Source: Bacteroidia bacterium
GTDB taxonomy: Bacteria; Bacteroidota; Bacteroidia; UBA10329
Length of the DNA: 64,000 nt
Assembly (NCBI GenBank): GCA_047611425.1
Contig: JBLFWJ010000001.1
Span: 4,038 to 68,037 of the forward strand
Direction of reading: 5' to 3'
Shown in pieces: positions 53,270-56,253 of the stretch. The number at the start of each line of letters is the position of its first letter. Positions within the stretch are counted from its first letter, which is position 1. The notes under the pieces were generated by a model. That model was given only the letters and a program-made list of their open reading frames with translations, searched no databases and had not been told where the DNA came from. The translations under genes were made by a program, and so were the position numbers.

Positions 53270-55765
53270 TCAATTCTGAATAATCAGAACTTTCACTGAG
53301 GACTCGAAATTCTCTCCCTTTGCCCGAACGAGATACGTTCCTTGTTCCATTCTAGGTAAACTGAATCTCTGAACCAGCTTGCCCGATAGAACAGTTCGAT
53401 CCAATAATCGAGTAACTTCTTTTCCCATCATATTGATGATGGAAACCGTTAATGGCCCAGCACTCGGTACTTCTAGGCTAACGGTTAGGTCTGTATTGGC
53501 AGGGTCAGGGTAAACTTCTAAATCAACACCTAAGAATGTTGCATCAAAAACAGCCACGATTTCTGCGTTACTTTCTGGATTGAATCGAAGAGCGCTGATT
53601 TTTTCATCGGCCACTTCAATTCCGTTCAATTCCCAATGAGAAAAGGTGCTACCTGTAGTTGGCTCTGCTTGAACGTCAACTTCGTTTCCATCATGATAGA
53701 CACCATTCCATGGAAACGAATTAAGATTTAATGTGTTTAATTGAATAGTGCCAGACCCTGCCGGAAATACATTGAAAGAGAGCACATGTTCTTCACCTAA
53801 ATCAAACACTTTCTGAAGGTCGTTTCTCGCATGTTGAGGCCTTCCATTAATGTGCGCAACGGTAGTATCATAAGCGGCATTGAAGTTGACTTCATGGCCG
53901 TTCCAGCGTTCCCAATGTTTCGGTAATTCGTTAGCCACCTTATCATGCGCAGTTTCGAGAGATGCTGTTAACGCATCAGGCAAGAATGCTGAATTAAGCA
54001 AATCATTATATCGATTGATAAACTGGCGTTTGAATTCTTCATTACTGAGGAATTTTCTGAAAATCTCTACATGTCGATTCCCATCTCCGTATTCGCCCAT
54101 AACCCGCCCAAGGTTTTCAAATTCAACGGGTATGAATGGAACACCTCCGAGAACCACATCCAAATCAAAAATGATGTACCGCCATTTGGCTCCCTCAATT
54201 CGCTCTCTCCAGAATTTGAGGTTGTTGTAAGGCCAGTCAGCATTATTCAAAATAGTCTGACAAGCATAATAATCCATCAAGCTTTCGATATCGAAATAGC
54301 CTGAAGCGATAGAATAACTCGACTCTTCTGTAAGGTCGTGGCTAAGGATGTACTGCTCCATTGAATCGAACGCAATAAAATCACCTTCAACAACTTCATC
54401 CTCTTCTTCTAAAAGGTCTAAATTTTTGTCATCAACGTCATGGTTATCCTCAACGTAGTATCGGTCATGCTTCTCCCTCAAATTGTGCATTCCCCAGTAT
54501 TCTCCATTAATGTAGACTCGGCTTGGACGATATGCGCCAACATCAACATTCACTTTTTGGTTTATCATATGCTCGTGAATAAAGCCATCTCTAAAACCCA
54601 ATTGTAGATAATCGGAACCTGAGTTTCTTAGTAACACACGCTTATAATCATTGATGCCTTTTGAAGGGAACAATTCATGCCGAATGCGATTTTTTCCGTA
54701 AGACGATTTAGCCAAAAGTCGAAGTGATCGCATCGGTCTGGTTCTGGAAATACTACCTCCATGAATCTCGAGACCGATTTCTTGTTCAAATGCCAAACTC
54801 CCATCTTCTTCGAAAAAGTGAACGTGGGCAGGTACTTCGGTGTCGTTCCAAAAGTTGGCCCCCGTGTACGGGAATTCAGGATTTGCATTCGGACCTAACA
54901 TGTAGATTCCGGTGTCTTTATCAAAAAGGTAACCAGGGTCTGTAGTAATACTGACAACAGGAATGTCTGCTTCATCATCAAGTAAAAAGGTTCCACTTCC
55001 ATAATCTGATGGGAAGAATTCAAAAGAATAAGCAATCGCTCGTATTACTGAGGAGGAGTTGATGTTTATTGGTTCGCTGTATAAATCAGAAGTCAAATCA
55101 GGAGTAGATCCATCGGTTGTAAAGTGAATCCAAGAGTTTGGAGTTTCACTTGAAATGGCCACTGCGATGTCCTCGTTATAAAAACCGCTGTTTTCGCTGA
55201 GTACAGGAATTGCAGTTTTATACGATTCCGTTCCAGAAACAAGACTATTGGTCGTTCTTGGTGTTGGAGATTGGTAATAGACAAACGGTGCCAGGCCATC
55301 ATTTTGTTGCCCGTAAGATTGGTTGGAAGGAATGAATCCAAACGAAACCGAGTCCTCAACAGTGCCATCTGGCCTGCTCAAAATCAAATCTTCGCCATTC
55401 TTTGACAGCTTGAAATTTGAATGAGGTTCGGTTAGATTTTGCGCGGTTCCCGAACAGAAAACAATTCGGTATCCATTTGCCGGAACAGTGGTTCCGACAA
55501 AGCTCCAAATGTTGGGTTGATCGAAATCATCGCTTAAAAACCATCCATCTAGGTTGACTTCTGAATTAGATGAATTATGAAGTTCAATCCAGTCTGGAGT
55601 AGAGCCACTTTGATCTTCCAAAACATTCCCGTTACTACTGCCTGCTTCATTAATCGTGATTTGACCAATGGAAGTGAAACTGAGAATGGAAAACAATATC
55701 GTGGTCAACAATCGGTTAATGAGATTGAGTGACAACTGGTGGGAACGTGATTTTACAGCTTTCAA
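53270..55765 (-). CDS. CotH kinase-family protein with lamin-tail domain (LTD) and T9SS C-terminal sorting domain
   Basis: LTD (ITINEAGSSNG...DWIELHN...NLDGWFLSDD), chitobiase-C-like domain, CotH core (...VYINGEYWGMHNLREK...), C-terminal T9SS domain (...GTYLVRAKGENFESSVKVLIIQN). Confidence 0.65.
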   Translation of the reverse strand: MKAVKSRSHQLSLNLINRLLTTILFSILSFTSIGQITINEAGSSNGNVLEDQSGSTPDWIELHNSSNSEVNLDGWFLSDDFDQPNIWSFVGTTVPANGYRIVFCSGTAQNLTEPHSNFKLSKNGEDLILSRPDGTVEDSVSFGFIPSNQSYGQQNDGLAPFVYYQSPTPRTTNSLVSGTESYKTAIPVLSENSGFYNEDIAVAISSETPNSWIHFTTDGSTPDLTSDLYSEPININSSSVIRAIAYSFEFFPSDYGSGTFLLDDEADIPVVSITTDPGYLFDKDTGIYMLGPNANPEFPYTGANFWNDTEVPAHVHFFEEDGSLAFEQEIGLEIHGGSISRTRPMRSLRLLAKSSYGKNRIRHELFPSKGINDYKRVLLRNSGSDYLQLGFRDGFIHEHMINQKVNVDVGAYRPSRVYINGEYWGMHNLREKHDRYYVEDNHDVDDKNLDLLEEEDEVVEGDFIAFDSMEQYILSHDLTEESSYSIASGYFDIESLMDYYACQTILNNADWPYNNLKFWRERIEGAKWRYIIFDLDVVLGGVPFIPVEFENLGRVMGEYGDGNRHVEIFRKFLSNEEFKRQFINRYNDLLNSAFLPDALTASLETAHDKVANELPKHWERWNGHEVNFNAAYDTTVAHINGRPQHARNDLQKVFDLGEEHVLSFNVFPAGSGTIQLNTLNLNSFPWNGVYHDGNEVDVQAEPTTGSTFSHWELNGIEVADEKISALRFNPESNAEIVAVFDATFLGVDLEVYPDPANTDLTVSLEVPSAGPLTVSIINMMGKEVTRLLDRTVLSGKLVQRFSLPRMEQGTYLVRAKGENFESSVKVLIIQN

Positions 55766-55811
55766 ATCCTAATTTTACAGTCCTGCAAGTTAATGATACA
55801 AGGACGCTGAA

Positions 55812-56018
55812 ATGAAAATCTTAAGACTGATGTTATCCACTGCCTTATTGATAGGTTCCTGCTGTTGGCTGAATTCCTGTACTTCCGGATGTGTCGTTTG
55901 CACTGGCGTTACAGCCGATCAAGACATATGTAAATCAGATTTTCAAGAGACCTCGGATTACAACCAATACATTGAACAATATGAGATGCAAGGAGGTGTT
56001 TGTGAGGAACCTTTATAA
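55812..56018 (+). CDS. Small Cys-rich secreted/lipo-peptide (68-aa precursor), paralog 1
   Basis: Signal/lipobox MKILRLMLSTALLIGSC. Mature roughly 48 aa with 4-5 Cys and conserved DQDIC.SDF...YN..I.QYE..GG.C shared with the next ORF. Confidence 0.5.
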   Translation: MKILRLMLSTALLIGSCCWLNSCTSGCVVCTGVTADQDICKSDFQETSDYNQYIEQYEMQGGVCEEPL

Positions 56019-56019
56019 A

Positions 56020-56211
56020 ATGAATAGAATAAAATTGATATTCGTTTTTATTGGTCTTCTGGCTTTTGCCAGTTGTACCCGTTGTTCCGATTGCGAAAAC
56101 AACGGTTTAACTGATCAAATCTGCGAGCAAGATTTCGATGATCCGAATGCCTACAATGCCGCTATTGCCAATCAGGAGGCAGATGGTGCCGAGTGCGTAG
56201 CCGTCATCTAA
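56020..56211 (+). CDS. Small Cys-rich secreted/lipo-peptide (63-aa precursor), paralog 2
   Basis: Start at MNRIKLIFVFIGLLAFASC, 1 nt after the paralog-1 stop. The longer 106-aa track ORF overlaps paralog 1 and is not preferred. TDQ-ICEQDFDDPNAYNAAIANQEADGAEC aligns with paralog 1. Confidence 0.5.
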   Translation: MNRIKLIFVFIGLLAFASCTRCSDCENNGLTDQICEQDFDDPNAYNAAIANQEADGAECVAVI

Positions 56212-56253
56212 TTATACCTTTCAAAGTGTATTTTTGGCTATCAATTTTCAAAC

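Follow-up and report, generated by a model that had tools for sequence, protein, structure and literature searches.

In Escherichia coli K-12, two very small lipoprotein genes, ecnA and ecnB, are located directly after efp (L048, NC_000913.3 4376317-4376699). They are annotated as encoding a bacteriolytic lipoprotein and its antidote. The mature entericidins comprise approximately 20-27 aa, contain no Cys but that of the lipobox, and are thought to be amphipathic helices. In Enterobacteria, RcsF and NlpE are outer-membrane lipoproteins whose small folded domains are disulfide-dependent, and NlpE carries a CxxC motif. Proteins of the HMA/CopZ type have a CxxC in a loop before a helix. LptM (YifL) is described in a preprint as a small accessory outer-membrane lipoprotein of the LptDE translocon, and as such a minor subunit of an envelope machine (bioRxiv 10.1101/2023.01.02.522452).

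The locus analyzed here is a tandem pair of small ORFs, ORF1 and ORF2, in a window of 64,000 nt (the whole stretch of DNA under analysis) from a Bacteroidia bacterium. Its nearest parallel in gene organization is ecnA-ecnB (PF08085), which likewise consists of tandem paralogous genes for very small lipoproteins directly adjoining efp. However, EcnA and EcnB scored -1.4 and -1.6 bits against the HMM of the family described below, and the ORF1 and ORF2 products have no Pfam match at E<=10. The mature products of the window are also longer (45-46 aa), acidic, and equipped with four structural Cys, and the pair lies upstream of efp, whereas ecnA-ecnB lies downstream. The shared adjacency to efp is probably coincidental because it is lost in several related loci. 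The likeness to LptM consists of precursors of approximately 60-70 aa, a short mature lipoprotein, and, as far as the preprint outlines it, a proposed role as a minor subunit. It is a functional analogy only, and no homology was detected (Pfam and NCBIfam were empty for the window pair). To our knowledge, LptM is neither Cys-stapled nor encoded as a paralog pair. RcsF and NlpE are also functional analogies only; they exceed 100 aa, have a linker to the lipid, and do not occur as a paralog pair, and the window pair has no Pfam match. Distinct from HMA/CopZ-type proteins, the window proteins have a single CxxC, which is predicted to lie in a strand, and a different order of secondary structure elements.

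Two paralogous lipoprotein genes

An earlier note on this DNA had described a tandem pair of paralogous small Cys-rich lipoproteins, with ORFs 1 nt apart and mature regions of about 45 aa, situated between a T9SS CotH-family cargo gene and efp. All of these points were confirmed. The ORF1 product is MKILRLMLSTALLIGSCCWLNSCTSGCVVCTGVTADQDICKSDFQETSDYNQYIEQYEMQGGVCEEPL (68 aa) and the ORF2 product is MNRIKLIFVFIGLLAFASCTRCSDCENNGLTDQICEQDFDDPNAYNAAIANQEADGAECVAVI (63 aa); the coordinates are listed in Table 1. The two products share 35% identity over 43 aa (pairwise BLASTP, E=7e-6), and the columns common to both are C, C, C, I-C, D-F, N, G, and C. ORF1 and ORF2 are paralogs. A protein identical to the ORF1 product is on record as P0007, 'hypothetical protein [Bacteroidia bacterium]', and homologs of ORF2 are recorded as P0001-P0006. 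The search for further paralogs that the note had called for was run on the 64-kb window as a six-frame scan with a family HMM, built partly from ORF1 and ORF2 themselves. It matched ORF1 and ORF2 only, and a third paralog was absent from the window.

Table 1. Positions of the features of the ORF1-ORF2 locus in the window
Feature	Position	Strand	Remarks
Candidate promoter of the two-gene unit, TAATTTTA	55770-55777	+	near match to the Bacteroidota -7 box TAnnTTTG, consensus only
ORF1, type-1 mini-lipoprotein precursor	55812-56018	+	68 aa plus stop
ORF1 signal peptide, aa 1-22	55812-55877	+	lipobox L20-N21-S22 before Cys23
ORF1 mature part, 46 aa, net charge about -8	55878-56015	+	Cys23, predicted lipidation site; Cys27, Cys30, Cys40, and Cys64, structural
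Junction TAA-A-ATG	56016-56022	+	ORF1 stop to ORF2 start, 1-nt spacer
ORF2, type-2 mini-lipoprotein precursor	56020-56211	+	63 aa plus stop
ORF2 signal peptide, aa 1-18	56020-56073	+	lipobox F16-A17-S18 before Cys19
ORF2 mature part, 45 aa, net charge about -9	56074-56208	+	Cys19, predicted lipidation site; Cys22, Cys25, Cys35, and Cys59, structural; hydrophobic C-terminal residue

The coding status of both ORFs was assessed by DNA alignment of 6-7 diverged lineages. In both ORFs, substitutions were concentrated at the third codon positions (e.g., 9/9/33 and 6/4/32 over the three positions). The dN/dS ratios (Nei-Gojobori, 6-7 lineages) were 0.04-0.19 for ORF1 and 0.03-0.06 for ORF2, with dS saturated in both cases. 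Given the third-position bias and the low dN/dS, both ORFs are therefore protein-coding and strongly constrained. ORF1 and ORF2 are real genes under strong purifying selection, and this selection is very strong, especially on ORF2, the type-2 gene. Exact or close homologs were present on metagenome and MAG contigs with the same synteny as in the window.

The opposite reading, namely that the small ORFs are spurious or that the region holds one longer gene in another frame (a 106-aa ORF, 55891-56211, as some gene callers annotate the homologs), is virtually excluded. The longer gene draws on the fact that the frame of ORF2 is open upstream across ORF1 and on the 69-106-aa versions (P0001-P0006) that gene callers output. 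However, the substitutions in the ORF1 region fall at third positions of ORF1, which are the second positions of the alternative frame, and ORF1 has its own conserved signal peptide, lipobox, Cys pattern, paralogs, and orthologs. The codon-position pattern and the existence of loci with separate type-1 and type-2 genes refuted both versions of this reading. As grounds for regarding the ORFs as spurious, the earlier note had named a lack of homologs and of Cys-pattern conservation; clearly to the contrary, approximately 170 relatives and invariant Cys were found. The 101-106-aa versions of the ORF2 homologs are artefacts because the variable sites in their extra part are ORF1 third positions. 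P0001-P0006 have wrong N-termini (69-106 aa in total length), extended upstream in frame so that they overlap ORF1 (window 55891-56211). On some contigs, ORF1 was left uncalled, a typical annotation error for small genes. A frameshift fusion of ORF1 and ORF2 was also considered and rejected, as it would bury a signal peptide inside the protein. Rfam searches of the locus and of the whole window and a tRNA scan were all empty; therefore, the region is not an RNA element. Over the window (1-64000), there were zero tRNA genes and zero Rfam families at the gathering threshold.

Both leaders (ORF1, MKILR...; ORF2, MNRIK...) have the make-up of lipoprotein signal peptides, i.e., a basic n-region, a hydrophobic h-region, and a lipobox of the form [LVI][ASTVI][GAS]-C. 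For ORF1, the note had read the lipobox as LLIGSC, ending at Cys17. This assignment did not hold. Neither Cys17 nor Cys18 is conserved; Cys17 is replaced by Ser in L001 (...ITGSSLWLSSC), and the residue preceding it is not lipobox-compatible at -1 in L004 (...LNIC) and L014 (...MSLC). The conserved ORF1 lipobox is L-[NSTI]-S-C23, which is kept in all orthologs, and Cys23 occupies the same alignment column as Cys19 of ORF2 and the family's invariant first Cys. Since Cys23 is conserved and aligned across the family, the mature parts comprise 46 aa (ORF1) and 45 aa (ORF2). Among 168 distinct family sequences, L/F/V accounts for 88% at position -3 and S/G/A for 99% at position -1, fitting [LVI][ASTVI][GAS]C, and the signal peptides are mostly 13-22 aa long. 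From these sequence patterns, lipidation and cleavage are predicted at Cys23 of ORF1 and Cys19 of ORF2. In surface-exposed lipoproteins of Bacteroidota, the export signal is an acidic motif, such as K-(D/E)2, directly after the lipidated Cys. The mature parts in the window start with C-T-S-G and C-T-R-C, without a K-(D/E)2-like motif; several type-1 orthologs start with C-K-D-D or C-D-D-G.

A family with an invariant Cys signature

Approximately 170 distinct relatives, typically 55-90 aa long, were found by an exhaustive profile search and an indexed search. In the exhaustive search, a profile of the mature regions was compared with 1.84 billion representative proteins, which yielded 46 cluster representatives at E<=1e-3. 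About 42 of the 46 were 59-104 aa long and had a common layout; two large repeat proteins (spurious matches) and two fragments were set aside. A further 91 members were retrieved by the indexed search, for which a 38-sequence alignment was the query. Every relative is annotated as 'hypothetical', and none carries a Pfam domain. All sources are metagenomes or MAGs, and the cluster look-ups returned metagenome sources only. The named sources are Flavobacteriales, Bacteroidia, or Bacteroidota MAGs, except for P0005. The NCBI copy of this protein (P0005 / L004-L008) is labeled Granulosicoccus sp., a gammaproteobacterium. Its contig has window-like synteny, down to a CotH gene whose product ends in a T9SS sorting domain, and is probably mis-binned.

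The common layout comprises a signal peptide and the lipobox Cys, followed by x2-3-C-x2-C, x8-14-[ILV]-C-[EK]-x-[DE]-[FY], and x3-5-[YF]-x3-[IV]-x3-E-x2-G-x2-C. Five Cys (the lipobox Cys and four others) are invariant in both paralogs and throughout the family, in agreement with the conserved Cys pattern reported in the earlier note, and one Gly is nearly invariant. In the 168 distinct sequences, the first and second Cys are separated by 2 residues in 133 cases and by 3 in 35, and the mature parts carry a mean net charge of -7.4. One metagenomic relative, P0038 (181 aa), is a lipoprotein whose single chain carries the mini-domain twice. Both repeats include an additional E-[ED]-D-G-Y-x-C segment and thus contain six Cys each. 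The single-sequence AlphaFold2 model of P0038 (pLDDT 51.8) is too poor to show how the two domains pack.

The claim that the proteins have no known domain was upheld, as zero Pfam and NCBIfam matches were obtained for the ORF1 and ORF2 products at E<=10. A Pfam scan of 38 family members gave noise only, PADLOC and PHROGs scans of both proteins gave nothing significant, and no PDB sequence matched the family. A full-text literature search retrieved no account of proteins of this type. The family is absent from all libraries searched and is a new family of a familiar kind, the small bacterial lipoproteins. More distant, single-copy relatives (L031, L033, L034, and L035) are found in other lineages and in unrelated contexts, and no recurrent neighbor of these four was found. 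The existence of single-copy relatives means that the domain can work without a paralogous partner.

The mature part of ORF1 was modeled by AlphaFold2 as a beta-beta-alpha-beta mini-domain (pLDDT 83.5, pTM 0.62), with the CxxC inside a strand. No meaningful structural neighbor of the predicted fold was found. Extra Cys occur in three independent subgroups (P0037/P0143, the P0051 group, and P0131), always as a pair at equivalent positions, one just after the CxxC and one two residues before the last Cys. Such paired gain makes two disulfides more likely than a Cys4 metal site, and it sets the CxxC strand beside the C-terminal strand, in agreement with the model. Two disulfides formed by the four structural Cys are thus the favored assignment from the sequences. 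The suggestion in the note of two disulfides per protein is supported as probable, the structural Cys being four, even in number, and invariant, with extras only in pairs. Its description of the peptides as Cys-knot-like was not borne out by the predicted beta-beta-alpha-beta order. A cystine-knot peptide requires six Cys and three disulfides, and this candidate failed since only four structural Cys follow the lipidated Cys.

The metal-binding alternative, in which Zn, Fe, or Cu(I) is bound at a Cys4 site made up of the CxxC and the two distant Cys, and the pair acts as a periplasmic metal buffer or chaperone, is judged improbable. The four invariant Cys do include a CxxC, the domain is very acidic, and the gene for P0131, a distant single-copy relative (L033), lies 22 nt downstream of a cupredoxin gene (PF00127). 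Against this, extra Cys appear only in pairs, as expected of added disulfides, Pfam contained no HMA or zinc-ribbon match at E<=10, and the predicted order is beta-beta-alpha-beta with the CxxC in a strand, as opposed to the beta-alpha-beta-beta-alpha-beta of HMA domains. A metal site is also disfavored by the fact that Cys-rich mini-domains, once exported, are usually in the oxidised state. The cupredoxin neighbor is a single case, whereas the other single-copy relatives have unrelated neighbors. The metal-binding suggestion of the note is accordingly not supported, with the paired gain of Cys arguing against it. Assignment to HMA or zinc-ribbon proteins was rejected because of the lack of a Pfam match (window proteins and 38 members), the single CxxC, the different element order, and the paired extra Cys. 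In L033 (4625-5222), P0131, which has the extra Cys pair, is also located near DoxX, YceI, and fasciclin genes; this locus provides the only hint of a metal or redox link.

Pairing, coupling, and genomic setting

The pairing of the two types was surveyed from both sides. A scan of 185,579 species-representative genomes with the ORF2-type profile yielded 16 loci (40-53% identity), all in MAGs and none in isolates, and an ORF1-type gene lay immediately upstream in 16/16. A metagenome scan with the ORF1-type profile yielded 12 loci (45-59% identity), with an ORF2-type gene immediately downstream in 12/12. Both types are thus retained, in constant order, in 28/28 seeded loci and in the window clade. 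Each type also has a signature of its own. That of type 1 is C-x3-C-x2-C-[TS]-G...GG-x-C-E with an acidic C-terminus; that of type 2 is C-x2-C-x-[ED]-C...ETICETEFD...C-T-x-x-G-G-F with a hydrophobic last residue. The type-1 and type-2 genes are an obligate unit. EF-P is approximately 80% identical in most loci; a fairly narrow lineage, as opposed to selection over long times, could therefore account for part of the conserved pairing. In one Flavobacteriales MAG (L029, 5001-5222), the type-2 gene leaves the family frame after ...QDAIADLEA and runs into unrelated sequence; it is either an assembly-error frameshift or a pseudogene.

The 1-nt gap of the window is also found in L001, L004, L009, L011, and L014 of the window clade. 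In most of the 16 genome loci, the likeliest start of the ORF2-type gene, taken as the one leaving a signal peptide of 17-21 aa, falls within the 3' end of the ORF1-type gene and gives an overlap of approximately 8-20 nt. In L016, the overlapping start agrees with the independent NCBI annotation P0073. Judging from the 1-nt gap or overlap, the type-1 and type-2 genes are taken to be translationally coupled.

Upstream of the pair, on the minus strand, is a gene encoding LTD, CHB_HEX_C, CotH, and Por_Secre_tail domains, i.e., a T9SS cargo protein. Downstream are efp, lpxD, and a gene for a SpoIIE-type phosphatase, with the pair two genes away from lpxD; in all, the neighbors in the window are CotH, efp, lpxD, SpoIIE, SDR, and HAD genes. 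Among related loci, the upstream neighbor varies (CotH, M48 peptidase, or TPR protein), as does the downstream one (efp-lpxD-SpoIIE, a convergent pair of AlgX-like and MBOAT genes, or a phosphodiesterase-family gene). The conserved neighborhood with the CotH gene, for which the earlier note had proposed a check, was not found; in many loci that retain the pair, the flanking sequence available contains no CotH gene. Because this neighbor is not conserved, a functional association with the CotH/T9SS cargo gene was rejected, and a link to efp was rejected as well, as efp has a promoter-like box of its own and the adjacency is lost in several loci. The convergent AlgX-like (SGNH) and MBOAT/AlgI-like O-acyltransferase genes occur in L019 (2803-5363), L024 (1438-4011), and L029 (5138-7707), and also in L028 and L030. 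These envelope-modifying genes lie between the lipoprotein pair and efp or directly downstream, and are absent from the window.

The candidate promoter box TAATTTTA lies 42 nt upstream of the ORF1 ATG and is conserved in the window clade. In most related loci, an exact TAnnTTTG or TAAATTTA is found 12-42 nt upstream of the ORF1-type ATG, by consensus match only. The occurrence of -7-like boxes before the type-1 gene and again before efp suggests that the pair is its own two-gene unit and that efp is separately promoted; the pair would then have its own promoter, and efp its own. A scan for generic sigma-70 promoters and terminators gave nothing above shuffled controls, and no terminator was detected after ORF2. 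The 42 nt from the ORF2 stop to the efp ATG (56212-56253) are 100% identical in three lineages (the window, L001-L003, and L004-L008) in which synonymous sites are saturated. This stretch contains TATTTTTG (56229-56236), an exact match to TAnnTTTG, and the same motif is located between the type-2 gene and efp in 12 loci. It probably represents the promoter and 5' leader of efp, kept under unusually tight constraint. Upstream of ORF1, the 9-nt sequence ATTTTACAG is present as two direct copies (55750-55758 and 55772-55780). The second overlaps the promoter-like TAATTTTA; the first is situated at the 5' end annotated for the CotH gene and lacks conservation in the L004 group.

Proposed role in the envelope

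The reading that we favor, with some reserve, is that ORF1 and ORF2 encode a co-translated, probably heteromeric pair of envelope mini-lipoproteins in a two-gene unit with a probable promoter of its own. Each precursor would be exported by the Sec system; lipidation and cleavage would follow at the invariant Cys of the lipobox, which is Cys23 in ORF1 and Cys19 in ORF2. The acidic 45-46 residues would fold as a mini-domain consisting of a beta-hairpin, an alpha-helix, and a beta-strand, which the four other invariant Cys would staple by two disulfides. With no more than 2-3 residues between the lipid anchor and the first structural Cys, the domain would sit directly on the membrane surface. The constant co-occurrence, order, and coupling suggest equimolar synthesis and joint action of the two products, most likely in the form of a 1:1 heterodimer. 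Their role would be a housekeeping one in the envelope, where they would belong to the outer membrane as accessory or structural components and would serve neither as a weapon nor as a signal. The very strong selection, the distinct subtype signatures, and the stable housekeeping setting favor such a role over warfare or signaling. Both mature proteins are strongly acidic (approximately -8 and -9), which disfavors a simple heterodimer in which neither cations nor a third partner take part.

The strongest competing account, though still an unlikely one, is that the two proteins are independent, partly redundant lipoproteins that are merely co-expressed after tandem duplication and form no physical complex. 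In its favor, single-copy relatives exist and both proteins are acidic. However, redundancy normally leads to the loss or free divergence of a copy. Here the two types have remained distinct, each with its own conserved signature, both are kept in order in 28/28 seeded loci and the window clade, and the dN/dS is 0.03-0.19 for both. Much less probable is the view that the pair encodes a bacteriocin-like toxin, an entericidin-like toxin and antidote, or signaling peptides, for which the gene organization recalling E. coli ecnA-ecnB beside efp could be cited. The products have no entericidin homology (negative bit scores and no PF08085 match), and they are predicted to be folded acidic disulfide-stapled domains and not amphipathic helices. 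For a bacteriocin, the double-glycine leader is absent, and no recurrent transporter, protease or processing gene, or immunity gene is present nearby. The strongly purifying selection and the stable housekeeping-type synteny also speak against a toxin or signal, and PADLOC and PHROGs detected nothing significant. A ribosomal bacteriocin of the Bacteroidota or class II type was likewise rejected since the leaders are lipoprotein signal peptides, there is no C39-peptidase ABC transporter or immunity gene, and the neighbors vary among loci. Of the functions that the earlier note had floated, the bacteriocin or toxin thus appears unlikely on the grounds of purifying selection, housekeeping synteny, and the lack of recurrent transporter, processing, or immunity genes, and the signaling peptide finds no support in view of the very strong selection and the stable housekeeping-type setting.

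A bolder form of the favored heteromeric pair would be an obligate heterodimeric, disulfide-stapled module acting, in uncultured aquatic Flavobacteriales, as a core subunit that is specific to the lineage and belongs to an outer-membrane machine. This form is doubtful. Candidates for its place would be lipopolysaccharide assembly, outer-membrane-protein assembly, or cation-dependent stabilization of the outer membrane.

In this study, a family of small lipoproteins is defined by a clear Cys signature, a confident fold prediction, and two subtypes that occur as an obligate coupled pair. The obligate pairing of type 1 and type 2 is new and can be tested. Gene annotation routinely misses small proteins or gets them wrong, and the homologs of ORF1 and ORF2 are an instance. 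Should the pair turn out to be neither a heteromeric envelope component nor a core subunit, the family would still be a well-defined domain of unknown function that is worth curating. If the pair is a heteromeric envelope component, it would be a lineage-specific outer-membrane part of abundant uncultured aquatic Bacteroidota, in the form of a compact, disulfide-stapled, lipid-anchored scaffold. If it is indeed a core subunit of an outer-membrane machine, it would establish a new fold family among envelope proteins and be the functional counterpart to small accessory lipoproteins like LptM.
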